Assembly (NCBI GenBank): GCA_964016885.1
Contig: OZ024740.1
Coordinates: 55,862,001-55,926,000 of the forward strand
Origin: Eledone cirrhosa
Lineage: Eukaryota
DNA length: 64,000 bases
Direction of reading: 5' to 3'
Shown here: piece after piece, positions 5,506 through 60,366 of the stretch
How positions within the stretch are numbered: position 1 is the stretch's first letter
How the letters are laid out: the number at the start of each line of letters is the position of its first letter
Notes under the pieces: model-generated
The model's database searches: none
What the model was told of the DNA's origin: nothing
The model's input: the letters and a program-made list of their open reading frames with translations, nothing else
Position numbers and translations under genes: made by a program

Positions 5506-5548
<43 letters not shown>

Positions 5549-5614
5549 ATAACAATAAATTTGAAGACTAAAATCCAAAGAGGGCTCGATAAGGATATAT
5601 ATATATACATATAG

Positions 5615-23290: not shown

Positions 23291-23800
23291 AATAAAACAT
23301 ATAATAATAAAGTAAAAAGAAAATAATAATATAAAAAGATAAATAAATAATTAAAAAAGTAATTAAAAACTATATATAACAGGTGATTTAGTTCTCCATA
23401 ACTTAGAGTTATAAAAATACTAAGAGGCCCCTAAGGCACCTTCAGAAAGTCCAAAGGGGATTTAATTCATCCCATAGTATACATAATCAGGGTATATTAG
23501 TAGGTTACGGAATTACGTGGACCAGGGGTGCTAAACATGTACATAGAAAAGCACAAAATCAATACAAGCCAAACACAAACAAAGCGGGGTTAAAGCATGA
23601 TCAAGCTGAAGCAAAAATACATAACAAATATGGTTTAGTCCCTGTATAAGGTACATCTGGCGAGGAGTCACAACATATGGATATCCACCGTAGAGGTTAG
23701 TCCAATCGGTTTCATATGCCCCGATTGGCGAATATACATATACATATATATATATATGTGTGTGTGTATGTTTATATATATATATATATATACATATATA

Positions 23801-24990
23801 CCTCCCTGATGACGAAAGGATTTTCTTCATGTTGTTCCATTCGGAAACCATGTTTATTCCCTTTCAGAAACTAATTAGTTGGAGTGAAATTTTAGTAAGT
23901 TAATTTTTATAATTTTCTTATTTTACGTCTTTCATATAATTGTTCTGCATCCCTTGCATTGAACCACAAAGTTACTAAGACAAAACCAATATATTTGCTA
24001 GCATAGGTATGCATCTGTATATATATGTTGGTAGATATACTAATTCTTTATAATTATCTCCAAATTATTTTGTTGAGCAAAAATTTGCCAAAATTGCTAC
24101 TATAGTTCATAGTAATAGTTCGGCTACTGTCTTATTAGCACCCCACTCCTCACTGATTAACCTCGATGTCACGTGATTGATTCTTTTGAATTTGCCACAG
24201 ACCAAGTAGGCAGTGATTTTTTCAATGTCCTGGAATTTAGTCCTCGCTTGCTTTTATCCATCCACTGAATTATGTTTGTATAAGTTCCCTGTGTCCACGA
24301 TTGCTTGGGAACTTAGCTGAGAATAGACCTCCCTGATGACGAAAGGATTTTCTCCATGTTGTTCCATTCGGAAACCATGTTTATTCCCTTTCAGAAACTA
24401 ATCAGTTGGAGTGAAATTTTAGTAAGTGAGTTAATTTTTATAATTTTCTTATTTTACGTCTTTCATATAATTGTTCTGCATCCCCTTGCATTGAACCACA
24501 AAGTTACTAAGACAAAACCTATATATTTGCTAGCATAGGTATGCATCTGTATATATATGTTGGTAGATATACTAATTCTTTATAATTATCTCCAAATTAT
24601 TTTGTTCAGCAAAAATTTGCAAAATCTACTACTATGGTTCATAGTAATAGTCAGGCTACTGTCTTATTAGCACCCCACTCCTCACTGATTAACCTCGATG
24701 TCACGTGATTGATTCTTTTGAATTTGCCACCGACCAAGTAGGCAGTGATTTTTTCAATGTCTTGGAATGTAGTCCTCGCTTGCTTTTTTCCAGCCACTGA
24801 ATTATTTTTGTATAAGTTCCCTGTGTCCACGCATCGCCTGGGAACTTAGCTGAGAATTGACTATCTGATGACGAAAGGTATTCTCCATGTTGTTCCATTC
24901 GGAAACTATGTTTATCCCTTTCAGAAACTAATTAGTTGGAGTGAAATTTTAGTAAGTAAGTTAATTGTTATAATTTTCTTATTTTACGTC

Positions 24991-24996
<6 letters not shown>
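23801..24996 (+). mobile_element. Tandem ~530 bp repeat (about 2.25 units) with one hammerhead motif per unit; retrozyme-like
   Basis: CTGATGA at 23806, 24333 and 24865 (periods 527 and 532), each followed by CGAA.GG..CC.TTCG-GAAAC(C/T)ATGTT; (TA)n on both sides. Confidence 0.85.
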
Positions 24997-25042
<46 letters not shown>

Positions 25043-25046
<4 letters not shown>

Positions 25047-25093
25047 TCAGAAGATCCCGTTACGGGTGAAAGCAGCGATTTTTTGCTTAAACT
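25043..25093 (+). ncRNA. Type-I hammerhead-like motif with CAGAAGA core variant
   Basis: AGTTT-CAGAAGA-tCCCG tta CGGGt-GAA-AGCA loop TGCT-T-AAACT; second copy at 43566-43616. Confidence 0.65.
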
Positions 25094-25219
25094 TTAATCT
25101 GTTATTTTAATAAATATTTGCTCTACGGTTCTTATATATTTGATATATATTTATCGTTATCGAGCCCTCTTTAGATTTTTGTCTTCAAATTTATTATTAT
25201 TACTATATGTATATATATA

Positions 25220-25257
<38 letters not shown>

Positions 25258-25260
<3 letters not shown>

Positions 25261-25725
25261 TCAACATCATCAGGTCGAGCTTGCTCGGTTTTCTACGACA
25301 CGTTTCCTCCATCCATCTCTGTCCCTCATAGCGTTTGCCAGTTCTTCCGCAGTGCATCCAGTATCGTCCTCAAGTTGCTTGACGTATGTCTTCTTGGGAC
25401 GACCAGCGTTTCTTGCTCCATGAGATGGACTCCATAACAATACATCACCTGCTATTTCTTCCTTGCTGCGCCAACAGTTGCCAGCAAATCTAAGTCTCTG
25501 TCCACGTATTGACCTGCTGATAGGTGGTATATTGCCATAGAGATCCTTATTTGTTGGGTGTTCCCTCCAAGACACGTTTAAAGCAGCGCGGAGCATACGT
25601 GTGTATGCCCCATCTAGCTTTTTCTCTAATTTCGACGTTAGCGTCCAAGTGATAGAGCCATAAACAAGCACAGATTTCACAGCAGCTCTGAAGAAATTCC
25701 TTTTCAGTTTGGCCGGCAGGTTTGA
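25258..25725 (-). mobile_element. RTE/RTE-X-type LINE 3' fragment with (GAT)n tail
   Basis: SVLVYGSITWTLT..LDGAYTRMLRAALNVSWREHPTNKDLYG..QRLRFAGNCWR..GRPKKTY. Confidence 0.88.
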
Positions 25726-25756
25726 TCATCATGGTATTTGAAGTCGTCAACTTGCT

Positions 25757-35855: not shown

Positions 35856-38287
35856 CTACAGCCGCATGACCAGAGTAGGCCCACTCACACGGGCCATTCT
35901 CGCCACATTCACCCACCTTTCAGCAAATGTACTGGGGGCAATATTTCTCTCTCCACCCTCACCTTCCTTTCCAAGTGAAACTTGAAAAAGTTGATGAGGG
36001 ATTGGCCGAAGAGAAAAGTGTCTGTCTTCAGTCCTTTCAACCTCGTCCACCATACAACCTCTTTCGCTACTGCCACCAGACAGAGGAAAATTGCCTGCCC
36101 TTCCTTGCCAAAAGAAGGCGGCGGGTCGATCTTCACTATGGACTAGGCCGATAGCCGGATCCGTTGTACAAGCGACAACAGCTGTTCAACATAACTCCAC
36201 AAGTCAGTAATGCACGGACACTGGACGAGTGCGTGCATAACGGTTTCGTCGCTCTGCTCGCATCTCGGGCAGGTCCGTCTGACAGCACTTCCGTGCCTGT
36301 AGAGTTTATCTCGAACCGGCAGTGCCCCCCGGTAGCACTGCCAAGTGAGGGATTTTGGGAAATTATCCATCGTCCCCGGCTCGAAAGTCCTCCGGTACAG
36401 ACTGGTTAGTTCGACTCCGTTGACTCCCAGAGCCTCTCCGAGTGCGTCGTCGCACTTGCCCTCTATAGAACTCGAGAGTGGAAATTCCACTGACCGCATT
36501 GCCCGCCTGGTAGAGGGCAGTGAGTGCCTGGCAACATTCCAGATGCCAGTCACCCAGTCTCGGTCTCTTCTTGACCCTCTCTATGATGTATCGCATTAGG
36601 TGGAGGTTGTCGTGTATGGACCTGGTTGGGGTTGCGCAAGTTTGCGCCTCCCCAACCAAGTCCTCGACGACAAGCGCCAACCTCTTCGCTAACACCCTGG
36701 CCAAAATCTTAAACTCTGTTGAGCAGAGTTATGGGCCTAAAATTGTCTAATGTGTCCCTCTTGTTCTCGTATTTCCTTATCAGTGTCACTACGCCCCGGC
36801 TCACAGAACTGGGAATACTCCCGTTTTGCTGCCAGTTGCAGTAGAGGGCTTCGAGGAGATTGGAGAACAAGTCTGGCATATTTACGTAAAGCTCGTAGGG
36901 AGACCATCCAAACCGGGTGACTTGCGCCTCATGTAACCGACAAGGGCATCCTGAATCTCGGCTGAAGTAATTGGCCTTTCGCAGCGCCCAGCGTCAGCCG
37001 TCGAGAGTTGATGCAAGCCATCGAGGTAGGGACTGAAGTCCACCACCATCTCTGACCCGCCACTTCCCCCGAACAGCCGAGCAAAATGTTGGCGAAAGGC
37101 CTCACACATCCTCTTGGAATCGTTCAGCTCGTGTCCGTCTCGGTCCGTCAAAGACCGAATCGTGGTTTTATTTCCACGCTGCGCCTCTGCCACGCGGGCC
37201 CATCGAACAGCTTTGATTCCCTCGTTTCTCAGAGCACGCGCCTTAGCTCTGACAATGCAACCTTCGTGTTTCGCATTGAAGAAAGGGTCTAATGCCATTC
37301 TTGCCGCTAGCACATCAGTTGCAATGCCACTACCAATAGCCTCGTCTAACTTATCTACCAACTCCCCCTCCTTTCTATTTTTCTCTAATGCTACTTCTTT
37401 GCTAAACTCTATCGACATTACTCTAATCTCTCTTTTGAGAGCCCCCCACCATCTATTGTTGACGACTCCCCTGTCAACTTTTTCTTAACTAAATTGTTGA
37501 CCTGGTCCCTGTAGGCCTTATGTGCCGGAAATGACATGTTTAGCTTCCAGTAACCAGGTCCTAACCTACGCGTCTTATCTAGGTCGACCATACAGATCAC
37601 AAACTTGTGATCTGAATAGGCGACCGTTTCAAAACGTGGACAGCTTACACTATTTTTGTCTATTTTCCTAATGAATATCCTGTCTATATACGATCTAGAT
37701 GACCCTATGCGGTTAGCCCAGGTCCACACTGGCGCATTAGGGAAATCTAGTCGGTACCTGTCAGACAGTTGGAACTGGCTGATCAGGTTATTGAGGCTTT
37801 TGCACCCCCCGCTCCTATCGGATACTCCCACACAGTCGCAGCGTGCGTCTAAGATGCCGTTCCAGTCCCCCGCTAAGAGTCAAGGGTGAGACGTACCCAG
37901 AAAGGCTTCCAGGCGTCTAAAGAAGTCCGACCGTCCTGCCCCACTAGGAGCATTGACGGCCACCAGTCTAAAGGCACCACCTTCATTATTGTTCACGTCC
38001 AGGACCACCAACTTCCCGTCCGGGTCCCGGAAGACGGACCTTACCTCGAGATCCAGGCCTTTCCTAAACAGCACTTCCACCCCGCCTCCCATTCCCGGCC
38101 GGCTAACAGATGCAAAGATCTGATAGTCGTCGAAAATGGGGGCTAGTGCGCGCGTGTCGGAAATCCTGGTCTCGCTGACTGCAATTACATCCATTTCTAT
38201 AGATCTGAGGTCGTTGAGCAGGTGACCCTGCTTCCAGGACGATCCCAGGCCTCGAACATTTAAACATCCTACTCTTAATACGGCCAT
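35856..38287 (-). pseudogene. LINE ORF2: apurinic endonuclease, partial RT and C-terminal zinc finger (frameshifted)
   Basis: CLNVRGL, VSET, SYIDRIF, SDHK; KSPGLDGLP; AQTCA..RSIHDNLHLMR; CPRCEQSDETVMHALVQC. Confidence 0.9.
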
Positions 38288-38318
38288 GTTGACAGGTTAA
38301 ACAGAGAGAGAGGAAGGT

Positions 38319-40142
38319 TTACTTACCTTCCGGGCTCTTGTGAAGGTCGGGTTGTTCGACCTCCATAGTTAGTGGGATTTCTTTTGGGAACCCCTTTAAA
38401 AGTCTTGAAGTGGGTTTTACGTTCGGGGTTCCCACGTCCCGAGGAAAGCTGTCTCGTATTTCTTTGAATATGTCGAGCGACATTCGCACCAGAACCAAAT
38501 CTTCCGGCACGCGAAATGGGCTCGATTTAAACATTTTCCCCTCTTTTTGTATATTTTCACTTCGTGCTACGAGGGCCATCAGATCCTCCTGACGAGCACG
38601 AAGTTTTGTATGTTTTGTTGGTGTGATTTTATTTGTTTGCGTGGCTGTGGCGGTGATGGTTTTGGTGGTATTGTTTCGGTTGTATCTGTGTTTGTTGTGA
38701 GTGCGGTGTCTGTGGTTTCAGATGTTTGTGTGTATATTTGTTCTTGCGTCTGTTTCGGTTGTTTGCGTTTGGAGGATTCTGGTGATGGTGATAGTGGTGT
38801 TGATGTTGGTGTTATTGGAGAGATGTTTGCGTGGGTGGTGTCTGCGTTTTTATTGTGGGTGCTTTTGTGCTTTGTTGATTTTTTTTTTTTTTTGTTTGAC
38901 AGATTTCCTCGTTTCCCCCCTGGGTGGTCAATGTTGGTGGTGGTCTTTCTATTGGTGTTGTTGTTGGTGGTTTTGCCGGTGCTGGTGTTGGTTGTGGTCC
39001 TCGCCCAGACGTCGACAGCAGTGGAGCCTTTCGTCTCCTTGCATCTTTCAGCAGTTGAAGGCAGAAGGCTCGCAAATGGGTTTTTTCCCCACAAACAAAA
39101 CACTGCGGCCTTTTTCCTTCGGTCATAATGTGAATGACCGTCCCATTCTGAAGGCGGATGTGGTCCGGGATTGTCTTCACATTCTCGGGCCTGATCTGGA
39201 GAAGGATCTCCTGGTCAACCCCGGACCAGTCTTCTCTGGCCGTTCTGGTCACTTCTATAGGGACTGTATCCGTCCCCTCCACAATCACAAATCCCAGAAG
39301 CCACCACATGTCAAGTCCTGGTGGGATTCTGGGAATGCGGAGACGGGCCGTTCTTTTTCACATGTGGGAGGGGTACATTATGACCTTGCTGGTTTTGCAA
39401 GGAGTTATAGCGTGTTTCATAGCGAGGGCTTCTGACTTGAACAACACCGAAATGGTGCCGTACTGTCTGCCCCTCTCTATGTACTGGGTGTTTTCTCTGA
39501 TGCACCTCAGCGCGACTTCGACATCTTCTTGTGGGATTAAAGCTGCCCTTTTGGTTTGTGCTGAGATGCATCTATAATGCACTGTTTTGCGCTCCACTGC
39601 CTCAATAGCTTCTACCGGGACAGTTAAGTTGGCCCAAGTTTGCTCTTGCTTGATGAGCTTCCATGCCTGGACCAACTTTTCATCTTTGTTTGAGAGGTCC
39701 ATGTTGAAGCATGGCCTCTTTTTTGCTGCTGCCGCAGCGAAAGTGTTCTTCTTGTTTTCGTTGGTGGTTTTGTTGTCGTTGTTCTTGTTGGTGTTGTTGT
39801 TAGCACTGTCGCTGTTATCATTGTTGTCTTTGTTGCCACCGTTGTTCTCGGTGCAGTTGGTATTGTTGCTGTTGGTGTTGTCGCTATTTGTTTTCATGTT
39901 AGTGGTATTGATATTGTTGTTGTATTTGTTTTGTTTTTTTTTGTTATCTGTATTTTCGTTGTCGCTGTTACTGTCATTTTTTTCAAAATTAGTGATCTTA
40001 TTGGTATCATTGGTGTCTTTGTTTACCTTGTTTGTGGTGGTGTTTGTGTTATCAATGTGTGTTAATTTCGCTGTAGCGCTCCTCTCAAATTCTACGTCGT
40101 TGTTGCACGACAGCCGACATATCGCTGGGAGGCTCAGCCATG
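38319..40142 (-). pseudogene. LINE ORF1 (frameshifted)
   Basis: Low-complexity N-terminus, RRM-like QYIERGRQYGTISVLF region, zinc knuckle EGKRPQCFVCGEKTHLRAFC. Confidence 0.8.
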
Positions 40143-40547
40143 TTTTTTTTTTTTCGTAAATTTTTTAACATGTAAAAATAAGTTCAAATATTTGGGCCAA
40201 ATAAGTTCAAATATTTGGGCCAAAAGGCCCAAATATTATACTTTCCCCTTCACGGGGCAAAGTCTAAGGGCTTATATCCCTTACACAACAAGAAATATTT
40301 AACAACAAATAATTTTAACAGGGAAATAAAGCGACTTACTGTGAGCGAGCAAAATACGTCCGCTTAGACCAATAATAATAAGAAGTAGAAGAAGAAGGAG
40401 GAGGAGCAGGAAGAAAAGAAGAAGAAGAAGAAGAAGAAGGAGGAGGAGGGGGAGGAGGAGGAGGAGGAGGAGGAGGAGGAGGAGGAGGAGGAGAAGAAGA
40501 AGAAGAAGAAGAAGAAGAAGAAGAAGAAGAAGAGTTATGACAAAGAA

Positions 40548-40730
40548 GGAAGGGAATACAGAAAACTTGCACTGAGTGAACACATTTCCACCTGCGCCTA
40601 ATGAAGAACCCAATTTCAAAATTCTTCCCCTCTACAAATTAAAGGCAACGCTTCCTACATTCAGCGTATCAACAAAGAATCACACTTTATCACTTTATCA
40701 CAAAATATGAGCCCCTTTTAAATGCATCAA
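40548..40730 (+). pseudogene. Decayed PLE GIY-YIG C-terminus (not Naiad; possibly Neptune-like)
   Basis: Manual translation across frameshifts: EYRKLALSEHISTCA..PNFKILPLYK..QRINKESHFI..KYEPLLN. Confidence 0.6.
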
Positions 40731-41387
40731 CCACAGACGAAACTAAAACTAGCACTCAACCTTAACATCCACCAATGGACGAATTAAGAAATATAGCATT
40801 TCCTTCAGAAATACTAAGGAAACAATCACATTTCTTTAGAAACAATCACACTTCAGGTCAATTTTTGACACCAATGGACAAACTAACAATGCCAGAATTA
40901 CCGACAGAAATATTAAGATAGATATATTTACAAACAATTACTCCCTCAGACAATTTTAAATTCACTACACCATTTAGGCCAGTCCCATGGACAGCTCCAT
41001 TTACTGCTATTAATAGTGATACTGTTACTACCACACATCCCCACCATCTCCTTCTGCTTCGCTCACCCCTCCTTGGCCTTTCCCTTCCTTCTTGGCTATA
41101 ACCCTATTATTACTACCACACCACTCCCTTCTTCTTCTTCTTCTTTTTCTTATTATTATTCTTATTCTTCTTATTATTATTATTACAGTTGCATTTATCT
41201 TGCTTTATGTGCATACGAGTTATCACCAAGTCACAACCAGTGACCTCAAGAGACAACAAGGTCCGCCATGTTCAAGAAAGAACATACATATTCACACATG
41301 CATCTTTAGTGTTTAGACTTGTGATGTACTTATATTGACAGAATCTTCCTTAGTATATGGGCAGTTCCCATTATTATTATTATTATT

Positions 41388-42194
41388 GATTTTCGTCGAC
41401 GCCTATCTCTTCGGAAGGACTTTCGGGCCGGGGCCTATGGACAACTTCCAGAAATCCCTGGCCTGGCAGTGCTACCGGGGTGCTTTGCCAGTTCGGGATA
41501 AACTTTACAGGCATGGAGGTGCCGTCAGCCGGGCATGTCCGAGATGCGCACAGGGCGACGAAACCGTCCTGCACGTACTCGTCCAGTGTCCGAGCATTGC
41601 TGACTTGTGGGTTTATGTCGAACACCTGCTGTCACGTGTAGGACGGATCCAGCTATCAGCTGAGTCCATCGTGAGGATTGCCCCGCCCTCTTCCTTTAGC
41701 CGGGAAGGGCAGGCAGTTTTTATCTGTCTGGTGGCCATGGCGAAAGAGATAGTATGGTGGACACGTTTGAAAGGGCTGAAGACTAGCACTTACCTCTTCG
41801 GTGATGCCCTGATTAACTTTTTCAAATTTCATCTGAAAAGGAAAATCAGGGTAGAGAGGGAAGTGCTCTCTTCCCAGCATTTTGTTGAAAGATGGGTGAG
41901 AGAAGCAAGTATGGCCCGAATGAATGGGCCTTCTCTGAGTATGTGTCTGTAAATTAAAGGTGCAAAACTGGGAGAGGGCACTTGCCCTGGTGGTCAGGGC
42001 CACTGTGGTCTTTTAATGGGCTTTCTCCACAAATGTCCCTCGGAAGTCTCCCCCCTATTGGGGAATTTTTCTTTGTTATTTTATTTCATCCTCTGTTTTT
42101 TTACACGCAGAAATGCCCATTTGTACCGTCCTGTATTGTCCTGTACTGTCCTTAATGTCTACTTTATGTAAACCCTTGTGGTTAATAAAGAAAA

Positions 42195-42908: not shown

Positions 42909-43565
42909 TATATATATTTATATATGTAAAAGGTAAACAGACATAACACAATCGGTACAGTATATGTAAGGGATATATTAGGTTAACGCTTGATAGAGCA
43001 GGAAGAGGGTCTTAACGTTTCCGACACTAGTCATATATATATATATATATATATATAACAAAGGAATTGTGGTAAGGAACCAGATGGACCATAACCCACC
43101 AGAGTACTCAATACTTAGGGTAGTAGAGTGGGAAATAGGAAAAAGTATGACCCCGACGGCAGAGTTCAAGCCGTTTCGACGGCTTTAGCTCTGCCGTCGG
43201 GGTCATACTTTTTCCTATATATATATATATATCTTCGTTTTTTATATATATATTTATATATATATTTATATATATATATATTTATATATATTTATATATA
43301 TTTATATATATATTTTTATATATATATTTATCTTCGTTTTTTTCGTTCATTGCCAGAGAACGTGTCTATGAACTACTTAAGAGAACATTAGTCTACGACC
43401 TCTTTTATACCATAAACGTGGTTCTGTCTTTGCGCGTAATTGTTTTTCTCCGCACCTATTAATGCCGTATCTTATTCGTTTTTTCCCGTTCTTTGCCAGC
43501 GAACGTTTCCACGAACCAAAATATCGTCTTCCTGTCTTCCTCTGCGTTTACAGATTGACTTTGTT

Positions 43566-43616
43566 AGTTTCAGAAGATCCCGTTAAGGGTGAAAGCAGCG
43601 ATTCTTTGCTTAAACT
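43566..43616 (+). ncRNA. Second copy of the CAGAAGA hammerhead variant
   Basis: AGTTT-CAGAAGA-tCCC gttaa GGGt-GAAAGCA..TGCT-T-AAACT. Confidence 0.6.
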
Positions 43617-43652
43617 TTAATCTGTTATATTAATAAATATATATATATATAT

Positions 43653-52131: not shown

Positions 52132-52602
<471 letters not shown>

Positions 52603-57343: not shown

Positions 57344-57400
57344 ACGTGGGAAAGTAAAACATCGGAGAATAGACCGTTAAAACATGTTTATTTAAAATAT

Positions 57401-57737: not shown

Positions 57738-60358
57738 TCACTCTTCATTCTTAACCCATCTAAAGAAGGATATTTTTAAGCGATGTGTACAACTTATCGC
57801 TGTTTCAGCTCTGCTGTTGATGAGCTCGTGGGGTGCAGTTATGATGTGGTAGAGCTCCATGAGGCAAAGATCGCATTTCCTCTTGAAGTTGTACGGTGCA
57901 GCCCTGCCGACAATCTCCCAGTGCGTGGAGAAGCTGATGTTTAAGTCCTTTAGTGATGTGATGTAGTCCGCGAGCGAAGTGGAGTGCCTTAGTTTTCTAT
58001 TTGTGAAAGAGTGGAGATGTGTTCGAAACCTAATTTTGAACGGGCCGGAGGTGGCCCCTATATAATGTTTAACGCTATTGTGGCTAGTAATAGTGCATCT
58101 ATATATAACCCTATCAGTCAAGCAGTATCCTCTAAGGGGGCAGCGTCCTCTGTCGCGGCAGTTGCAATTTCTGTCGCGGTTCCGTCTATTTCCCACGGTA
58201 AGGCTATCATTATTGCTGCCTACGTTGTTACCTACGCTACCGCAGCTGTCGTTAGCACAATTACAACCCACAGCACGCGGGATGGTGCGATTGTTATTCC
58301 GCACGTCATGTTCTGCATGTTCCCCAGTCACTTCGCGGTCATTCTGGTTGCGTCTGCGGATGCCGCTGCCAACACTATTGGATGCTGTCAGGGAGTTGTT
58401 AAGGCCGATATAGTTATTGTCAGGTGTAGGTGCGTCTGTGTCGAGGTGCTGTGTCTTGGTGATCTTACTGTGGTTCGTTGTTCCTATGATGTCTGCTAGG
58501 TTAGGAGTAGTAGAGAAGGATATTTTTATATTGTTCCTATTAAGAATTTTTCTATACCTATGGTTGGGTGGGAAGTTCTTCTCTAAGGCTTCGAAGAATA
58601 TCCGGGGTATGTTGGAGGCCACACTTCGAGAGTAGGGGGGGGGGGAACCATAGGACGTTACGGTGGCGATTACGTGTCCTTGTACTTTTGCTACGGGTGG
58701 TTCCATCTAAGTGATCGCTCTTATGTGTGTTAATGCGCTGTCGCCCGTTCGGTGCCCCTTTCACTTTATGCTCGGGTGCACTCCTTCTACCTCTTCCATG
58801 TTTATGTACACGAAGATGTTGGTTGGAAGGCGTTGGTAGTAGGCCGACGCCTTTGTTGGTTTTGTAATAGGGGAATAGTTTGAGTAATCTACAGTATTCA
58901 CCGTCGCCGGGGACGTGATCTTTGGTGCGGTTATCTATTCTATTATATCCGACTTTAACGAGGTCGCCGCGTGATCGGTTATAGGTATGGCTTACTATAA
59001 CGTTAGTTTTATGAGGGGGTGGTTTCTAGAGCTAGCGTTAGGGATGTAGGAAATTCCTCGGTTAAAGCCGGCGCTTAACAGGGCCCTATTGTAGTAATCA
59101 ACCGCTTGGTTGAAGATATCCTCATTGGCGGATAGCCTCGAGATTCTATGTGAGATACTATAGACTATGGAGTTGAGAGTCTGCTTAGGGTGGTTGGAGG
59201 CATAATTAATATAAGAGAGGCACTCTCCAGGCTTATGGTATGGCTTGTATAAGCCTGTACTCAACTCCAGGGTCACGTCCAAGAAGTTGACAACCCTGTG
59301 GTTGAGGTCCATAGTTACGGATAGGCCGTATGACTTAAAGAACCTGTGTATATGTTTGTTAAGGTTCTCTATCCTACGGGGGCTATGGTTCCTAACGGTA
59401 AACAGGGCGTCGTCCCTATATACAGCTCCTTGTAGGGCCGATATTTCTTCCCTAAGCTTATGTAGGAGGTATATCCCAACCAGGTCAGTTGCTTGCGCTG
59501 AGTCGCTGGACCCCATCGTGACATCGAAGTTATCAGGACGGTTGGTTCTGGTCCAGTGGGAGCCTTCGAACTGGATAATGGTTCTACGTGCCGCTAGAAT
59601 TATGTCTATTTCTTTTTTGGTGAGGCTAGTGTTAGATCTAGCTAAGATAAGTGCCTTATTTAAGAGTATGGGGGAGATAGAGGCGTAGTAGCTATCTATA
59701 TCAAACTGGATGAATTTCAGGGTGGCTTTATCCGGCAACTCGGTGAACCAATTTATGACCTGGTTGGTGTTGCCCCAGAGGCAGACCTTAGCCTTTCTAT
59801 TAAGCTCGAGTAGTACTCTGTCGAGGATCACTTTACTAATCTTACCTATATCTGATGTAGAGGGGCATATTAGTCTAATAGAGGGGCTTTCATTAAAGTC
59901 ATATTTGTGATCCTTAAGAGAGAATTTAGGCGTCAGAGGGACGTACGGGTTAGTGTACTTTTCTATTTCTAAGCTGGTGACTATATCCTTCCCTACTCTA
60001 TTTATGTCATTTAGGGTACTAGAGGGTGTCTTTTTGTAGTCTTTGTGTAGTTCCTTATAGATGAATTTGTTATACTCACTCGCGTCCATCTTGTACAGCT
60101 TTTTGGTTTTGTCGGAGGTGACGAAGAGGTGCGGGTCATTCTTGATCTTAGTTATTAGTGTATCAAGGGACGTTAAGAATGGATTGCTGCATTGGTGTTT
60201 CTTTCTGAGCTTAACGTTTTTGATCATTTTCAGCAGGTCCTCTTCAAATAAGTCCAGTAAGGTGTTGTGCGGTGGGTTTCGGTATGTTTTGAAACCATAC
60301 TTCTCTTTGGGTTCAGGAAGGTTACGGGTGTTCTTATCCAGGTGGTATGCCTTCCATC
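57738..60358 (-). CDS. PLE polyprotein (RT plus GIY-YIG), interrupted by about 3 frameshifts
   Basis: RWKAY..KYGFKT; SDKTKKLY; LKDHKYDF..IRLICPSTSDIGKISK; QFDIDSYY; VTMGS; YRDD; RNVLWFPPPYS; CNCRDRGRCPLRGYCL; VIYRC..YIGAT..FKIRF..H; CDLCLME; LINSRAE. Confidence 0.9.
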
Positions 60359-60366
60359 TCTCTCTC

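Follow-up and report, generated by a model that had tools for sequence, protein, structure and literature searches.

A dispersed, protein-free tandem repeat with type I hammerheads in Eledone cirrhosa, likely a non-autonomous PLE

Introduction

How does a short tandem array that contains hammerhead motifs and no protein-coding gene come to lie between two TA-rich tracts? The array discussed here lies in the genome of Eledone cirrhosa, within a window of 64,000 nucleotides (GCA_964016885.1, contig OZ024740.1, forward strand, positions 55,862,001 to 55,926,000); coordinates below are those of the window. Animal retrozymes are the obvious point of reference. A 2020 paper proposed circles as their templates and Penelope-like elements (PLEs) as candidate mobilisers (PMC7229834). 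A 2026 preprint supported a PLE origin by co-occurrence and by pLTR homology in Xenopus and reported cleavage in only one of nine dimers tested (10.64898/2026.07.22.740005). In their main texts, both treat the identity of the mobilising enzyme and the use of circles as templates as open questions (PMC7229834; 10.64898/2026.07.22.740005). We compared these papers by main text, and their supplementary family lists could include relatives of the family described here.

We present evidence that the array is a single insertion from a dispersed family of protein-free tandem repeats, which is most likely a non-autonomous PLE (non-LTR retrozyme) that would borrow a PLE reverse transcriptase (RT)/GIY-YIG endonuclease. 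One genome holds thousands of young insertions with a PLE signature, exact priming sites, a predicted cut and intact candidate enzymes, which makes the mobilisation question directly testable.

Array structure

The array consists of two full head-to-tail units and a partial third, about 2.25 units in all. Unit 1 (23801..24327, + strand, 527 nt) is 5′-truncated about 80 nt upstream of the predicted hammerhead cut. Unit 2 (24328..24859, + strand, 532 nt) carries a subfamily haplotype unlike that of unit 1, and the two are identical at 508 of 525 aligned columns (96.8%). The partial third unit (24860..24999, + strand, ~135 nt) ends at a site here called A (24989-24999), where we infer that reverse transcription started. 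CUGAUGA cores occur at 23806, 24333, and 24865. The array starts 5 nt before the first of them, and TA-rich tracts flank it on both sides. The left (TA/TG)n tract (23732..23800) adjoins the 5′-truncated end and is likely the remainder of a microsatellite target; the right (TA)24 tract (24995..25043) would be the primer side. Unit 1 contains internal copies of priming sites A (23928..23938, + strand, TCTTTCATATA) and B (24044..24052, + strand, TTCTTTATA), and the span between them corresponds to a “tail” of about 114 nt. The longest stop-to-stop frames wholly within the array are 73 and 76 amino acids (aa), and tblastn against six PLE frames of the window returned no open reading frame (ORF) remnants in the unit (best E value, 0.03).

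A preliminary description of the locus, made from the sequence alone, had recorded 2.25 head-to-tail units of ~530 bp, no credible ORF, and an array that begins about 5 nt before the first core and is bounded by (TA)n; all of this stands. It had also placed three hammerhead cores in register. The three CUGAUGA motifs are present; the third has a mismatched stem I and is missed by the descriptor used below.

A separate insertion, the 5′-truncated 3′ end of an autonomous Hydra-like PLE (25042..25217, + strand, 96.6% identity), adjoins the right TA tract of the array. Other insertions frequently adjoin the TA tracts at PLE ends.

Hammerhead fold and predicted cleavage

Hammerhead 1 (23802..23884, + strand) has its CUGAUGA core at 23806-23812, GAAA at 23867, and a predicted cut after 23880. 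Its stem I pairs CUCC with GGAG, the extended part having been lost through truncation. Stem II pairs GAAAGG with CCUUUC around an insert of ~40 nt; one unpaired C precedes this stem and one unpaired A follows it, and stem III lies within the palindrome ACUAAUUAGU. Hammerhead 2 (24312..24428, + strand) has an extended stem I, its core at 24333, and a predicted cut after 24407; its palindrome is broken by a T>C change at 24403.

Each unit contains two GAAAC motifs after CUGAUGA, of which a relaxed type I descriptor recognises the second alone (23867 and 24394). This descriptor matches four places in the 64-kb window, two of which are array cores 1 and 2; the third core (24865) is missed. Across 34 relatives, the fold built on the second GAAAC is 98.4% paired, with three pairs changed on both sides. 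It has 32 cells changed on both sides, a value reached in 0 of 500 shuffles, although the rows are hand-picked subfamily representatives whose relatedness inflates this control; versions of the fold slid along the sequence are at most 57% paired. Once overlapping loci had been merged via sequence context, 230 loci yielded 249 distinct cores. In these, the second pair of stem II is A-U in 142, U-A in 70, and C-G in 33, and two further pairs covary. Four pair types occur at a single stem II position among the 34 representatives. The conservation of stem III is biased because stem III served as the search anchor. The covariation seen among subfamilies thus favours a type I fold of the Penelope kind, in which stem II is long. 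CUGAUGA itself is kept in 236 of the 249 cores of this non-autonomous family.

The preliminary description had proposed a different fold, with stem II formed by CGAA/UUCG and cleavage near 23854 and 24381. That fold lacks stem I, is 63.7% paired with zero covariation in the 34 relatives, and uses a GAAAC that is missing from other subfamilies. The GUU at the proposed site has no stem I partner, and the covarying fold moves the predicted cuts 26 nt, to just past the GUU that ends at 23880 and 24407.

The PLE minimal hammerheads described in PMC4209133 resemble this fold in their short helix I, long helix II, and palindromic helix III, in the base between positions 9 and 10.1, and in the G10.1-C11.1 pair; such hammerheads are weak cleavers and act as dimers. 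For the monomer, the calculations favour an inactive fold over the active one, by 2.5 kcal/mol for unit 1 and 4.7 kcal/mol for unit 2. The calculated duplex energy is −9.0 kcal/mol for the intact palindrome and only −4.9 kcal/mol for the pairing of unit 1 with unit 2. By these predictions the window copy is probably a poor cutter, and it may not cut, because the inactive fold is favoured and the unit 2 palindrome is broken. An Rfam search of the region returned no hammerhead and no other credible family; the hammerhead was probably missed because of the long stem II insert.

Two more PLE-type hammerheads occur in the window at 52401 (+ strand) and 43965 (− strand), with the same one-base stem II offsets. 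The former has (TA)n about 100 nt past its cut. Unrelated hammerheads with long stem II inserts were seen at L143:6510-7420 and L160:1042, and a 459-nt tandem at L143 that ends in (TA)n is probably a sister retrozyme family.

Genomic copies

The family is dispersed. In the 3.0-Gb genome, an exact 25-mer of the window subfamily has 2,156 matches and an exact 19-mer core common to all subfamilies has 9,562, and the reversed control of each has none. A search with the unit gave 3,574 candidates; the 40 that were scored show 94 to 96% identity and lie on many contigs. Seven natural units are 521 to 571 nt long, share 71 to 99% identity, and have GC contents of 34 to 37%. All seven are more stably folded than shuffled versions (z, −2.9 to −9.5; 12 shuffles each). 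Contigs from four runs of unrecorded kind also cover the unit and have loose (TA)n ends at sites A and B.

We examined 180 loci, 133 of them distinct; they were picked for a top score or for their place on C1, the contig that carries the window, and are not a random sample. The locus maps reveal units in tandem and no LTR structure. The arms are short: 179 of 188 hold one or two hammerheads, 71 hold at least two, and one holds 16. No tRNA-, 5S-, or 7SL-type structural RNA head, as a SINE would have, was found by Rfam at an E value of ≤10. The initial reading of the unit as retrozyme-like and ORF-less thus holds, and the single-locus duplication against which it was to be checked is not what the genome contains. 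The unit had also been thought long for a metazoan retrozyme; units of 51 to 972 bp are reported in the main text of the 2026 preprint (10.64898/2026.07.22.740005), and its size is therefore unremarkable.

The family has the DNA-level properties of an animal non-LTR retrozyme, namely, dispersed, tandem, noncoding, self-paired units with a type I hammerhead, a GC content below 50%, and no LTRs. On these properties it would be classed as one, and it appears to work like a non-autonomous PLE. It resembles the published families (Cervera & de la Pena 2020, PMC7229834; Li, Clavereau & Pollet 2026, 10.64898/2026.07.22.740005) in its ORF-less tandem form, with one type I hammerhead per unit, in its low GC content (35%) and self-pairing, in its thousands of copies, in its coexistence with PLEs, and in its unit size. 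It differs from them, as far as their main texts describe, in three respects. Their helix II is the canonical 4-bp form, whereas the hammerhead here is of the PLE minimal type with a structured stem II insert of ~40 nt. Their mobilisation by PLEs was deduced from co-occurrence and pLTR homology, whereas here the insertion ends themselves bear a PLE signature. Circles were shown there, and the present family is known from DNA.

Insertion ends

Among 188 hammerhead-bearing arms at the 133 distinct loci, 172 end at one of two sites (93 at site A and 79 at site B); the other 16 are unclear. Site A (...TTTCATATA) lies ~57 nt and site B (...TTCTTTATA) ~170 nt past the predicted cut, and both run into (TA)n; the tail from A to B is ~114 to 120 nt. 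Head-to-head insertions (n = 48) comprise 37 A+B pairs, one A+A pair, no B+B pair, and 10 with an unclear arm. A+B thus accounts for 37 of 38 clearly typed pairs, where independent choice by each arm would be expected to give about half. The 3′ ends are fixed at the two sites, and only the 5′ ends vary, scattered over the unit. Circularly permuted endpoints, which the preliminary description had suggested looking for, were accordingly not seen. A target site duplication of more than 4 bp would be hidden by the (TA)n on both sides, and 2 of 24 loci resemble a duplicated (CT)n(TA)n target.

Reported hallmarks of PLEs include partial tandems and an inverted 5′ arm, together with a one-sided tail and insertion into (TA)n (PMC8557442). 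The family shows 5′ truncation, partial tandems, and an inverted 5′ arm, with a tail at one end only and two 3′ ends. In these features and in its (TA)n targets it resembles the EN+ PLEs of the Hydra and Neptune clades and non-autonomous Chlamys elements such as MRC1 (Craig et al. 2021, PMC8557442). It differs from the EN+ PLEs, as described there, in having no ORF, a tail of ~115 nt instead of 30 to 40 bp, and no sequence-matched autonomous partner among 108 loci. The reported tail length is not general in this genome, since the autonomous PLEs found here have tails of ~66, 80, and 100 nt.

One of these, an abundant Hydra-like family, encodes a 713-aa RT-GIY-YIG protein with RWR, DKT, and CxCX5C linker motifs, and its ORFs are intact and 98 to 99% alike. 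Its two end sites are 100 nt apart (16 A and 12 B ends of 30), and in 10 near-full-length loci all 8 inverted insertions pair A with B. The ends are ~80 nt apart in a second family of this sort and ~66 nt apart in a Neptune-type family. The autonomous PLEs of this genome show the same end behaviour as the non-autonomous family, and, judged by their ends, the Hydra-like and Neptune-type families would both qualify as its partner. In both, the hammerhead cores that precede the A and B ends are all degenerate, reading CAGAAGA or something close to it (L241:2950-3000 and L143:6100-6140).

Proposed mechanism

From the anatomy, counts, covariation, and end statistics, which are observed, we infer every RNA and enzyme step of the following scheme. 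Arrays would be transcribed as multimers, in which a weak and probably dimer-dependent hammerhead would cut only some units, leaving linear RNAs with a 5′ end at the cut, and a share of the monomers may become circles by ligation. A PLE protein would nick a (TA)n tract on both strands. cDNA would be primed inside the RNA at A or B, ~57 or ~170 nt past the cut, where a few UA bases could pair with the target. With both strands primed, one via A and the other via B, head-to-head arms would result. The enzyme may slip at initiation, repeating a short template seed, and would then stop at random or run off at a cleaved 5′ end. The window copy would have been primed at A (24999), after which 2.25 units were read back.

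The tail of PLEs has been traced in vitro to two internal start sites (PMC11167929). The Anolis PLE PAc (Frangieh et al. 2024, PMC11167929) resembles the present family in that two internal starts downstream of the hammerhead set the tail and in that uncut RNA serves as template. By comparison with that account, both sites here end in target-matching UA bases, the two arms of an insertion nearly always start from different sites, and part of the 5′ ends lie at the cut site. Two published observations weigh against the scheme. The tail of ~115 nt exceeds the 30 to 40 bp reported for PLEs (PMC8557442), and the Anolis PLE primed in vitro without target homology and with no strand difference in start site (PMC11167929), which speaks against the priming steps.

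Circular or linear template

The scheme above and the classical retrozyme cycle differ solely in the template, and the two could coexist. In the classical cycle, ligation of cut monomers would yield circles of ~530 nt, and these would serve as the principal template, copied by rolling circle from A or B. The 5′ ends of the arms bear on this choice. Of 238 such ends, 22 fall 0 to 14 nt past the predicted cut, where 9.2 are expected from the upstream flank (P = 2e-4); the next-best interval holds 15, and the bin with the previously proposed cleavage site holds 9. The peak includes arms that still span one or two uncut hammerheads. This pile-up suggests cleaved linear templates, and it could alternatively reflect a stall at the base of stem I. 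A circle lacks a 5′ end, so a peak at the cut, present even in arms with uncut hammerheads, counts against it.

Within an insertion, the units agree in their subfamily alleles, with 35 of 518 comparisons discordant, compared to 16,811 of 40,079 (42%) between loci. Private differences are alike within and between insertions (2.6% and 3.1%). Each insertion thus appears to derive mostly from one kind of template and to have aged afterwards, which fits a circle or a homogeneous multimer. The 71 arms with at least two hammerheads, and the arm with 16, whose units diverge mostly in a star-like manner, are easily explained by a circle. The unit spacing of 521 to 571 nt kept across subfamilies, the self-pairing of the units, and the circles shown for coral, mussel, and axolotl retrozymes (PMC7229834) point the same way. 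The window array, however, switches haplotype between and within units, so a mixed template or template switching is needed, and a single circle could not have produced it without such switching. We regard a cycle with circles as the main template as possible but doubtful. Rolling-circle copying of a circle, by which the preliminary description had explained the oligomer, is therefore allowed by the data and not required by them, since cut-site 5′ ends and mixed haplotypes fit linear multimers at least as well.

Relation to autonomous PLEs and satellites

A non-autonomous element would need a partner. No autonomous PLE with an untranslated region (UTR) homologous to the unit was found among 108 PLE loci, in a genome whose candidates number tens of thousands. 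The 108 loci comprise 30 with GIY-YIG, 20 with long ORFs, 30 of the abundant Hydra-like family, and 28 from two families found next to 5′ junctions at L136 and L167.

The arrays could instead stem from an autonomous PLE, as truncated tandems of its pseudo-LTRs, with the copies that bear its ORF lying outside the sample. The shared end architecture is in keeping with this, and only ~130 of several thousand loci were examined. In all mapped loci, however, arms upstream of the hammerhead always enter another unit and never an ORF, protein similarity to the six PLE frames is absent, and the UTRs of the autonomous PLEs checked have no homology to the unit. No copy in the loci checked forms the UTR of a PLE ORF, an arrangement that would have spoken against the preliminary description, and we consider such truncation unlikely. 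Another reading would be a satellite or a local duplication that recombination has spread and that resembles a hammerhead by chance. It could draw on one long array with a few near-identical unit pairs, but the copies form short arrays on many contigs, not the long arrays of a satellite at a few loci, and they have fixed 3′ and random 5′ ends, inversions, and four pair types at one stem II position; this leaves the reading hardly any credence, dispersal and covariation refuting it.

That long array (L121, G000:C1:94665500-94675400) combines the 16-unit arm with a short inverted arm and is a possible satellite in the making. Twelve of its units were compared and are mostly 20 to 39 substitutions apart. 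The few near-identical pairs are a sign of later local events (conversion or duplication).

CT runs at insertion ends

Under the preferred reading, a non-autonomous PLE primed at A and B, some ends may also record how copying began. In subfamily B, internal site B reads CTCT, with at most two CT units in 12 of 12 internal copies, and insertion ends at site B carry (CT)4-14 in 18 of 25 cases. The expansion is seen in 0 of 29 ends of subfamily A, which has no such seed, and in 4 of 17 of a third group. An autonomous end with a CT-type seed (L292) shows the same expansion; another without a template seed (L242) carries a CT run as well, which counts against slippage. Preexisting (CT)n(TA)n targets were considered as the source. 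They can be rejected for most loci, because (TC)4 or a longer run comes before only 16 of 1,834 control TA tracts and because, at 21 of 24 expanded loci, the first 150 nt of the far flank hold no CT run; they are likely for 2 of the 24, where the CT run found directly past the far TA tract is what duplication of a compound target would leave.

Reiterative copying at initiation is the simplest reading of the CT runs. Lengthening of a short template repeat at the start of reverse transcription is known from LINE tails, such as the TGTAA of UnaL2 (PMC3747384). The present case is alike in that respect and differs in that the seed is internal, has only two CT units, and would be copied by a PLE RT, a relative of telomerase. 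A literature search on this point found no report of reiterative copying in PLEs.

We suggest, tentatively and at somewhat short of even confidence, that the family is a fossil record of a telomerase-related PLE RT at work in vivo. A dimeric enzyme would prime two strands at two internal sites by UA pairing and copy a seed of 2 to 4 bases reiteratively, as telomerase does. PLEs and retrozymes would thereby write new (CT)n and perhaps lengthen (TA)n, and the hammerhead would define the 5′ ends of templates, the making of circles not being its chief role. If so, these elements create their own future targets, which would help explain the extreme microsatellite load of this genome.

Novelty and other elements in the window

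The kind of element is already known (non-LTR retrozyme or non-autonomous PLE). Its distinguishing part is a legible mechanism: A/B pairing, cut-site run-off, and seed-dependent microsatellite growth. Strict A+B pairing and the seed-dependent growth bear on the PLE mechanism and on PLE kinship with telomerase. A literature search whose scope left out most subscription papers and Repbase/Dfam found no description of the family or of A/B pairing, and a word search of the main text of the Octopus vulgaris repeat annotation (PMC13282606) found neither hammerhead nor retrozyme.

The window contains further pieces of the abundant Hydra-like family at 43328-43640 and 5532-5613. A frameshifted Hydra-like PLE with RWK, DKT, and CxCX5C motifs lies at 57738-60365 (− strand), with a degenerate hammerhead near 57400. 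A separate GIY-YIG fragment at 1246-2016 (− strand) has a weak Pfam match, the sole one among five window frames. A LINE 3′ fragment at 25258-25740 (− strand), which we take to be RTE-like, ends in a short GAT repeat and is flanked by (TA)n. A large inverted pair of LINE-like fragments, presumably L1/Tx1-like, spans 35945-41862, with arms of 457 nt that are 80% complementary.
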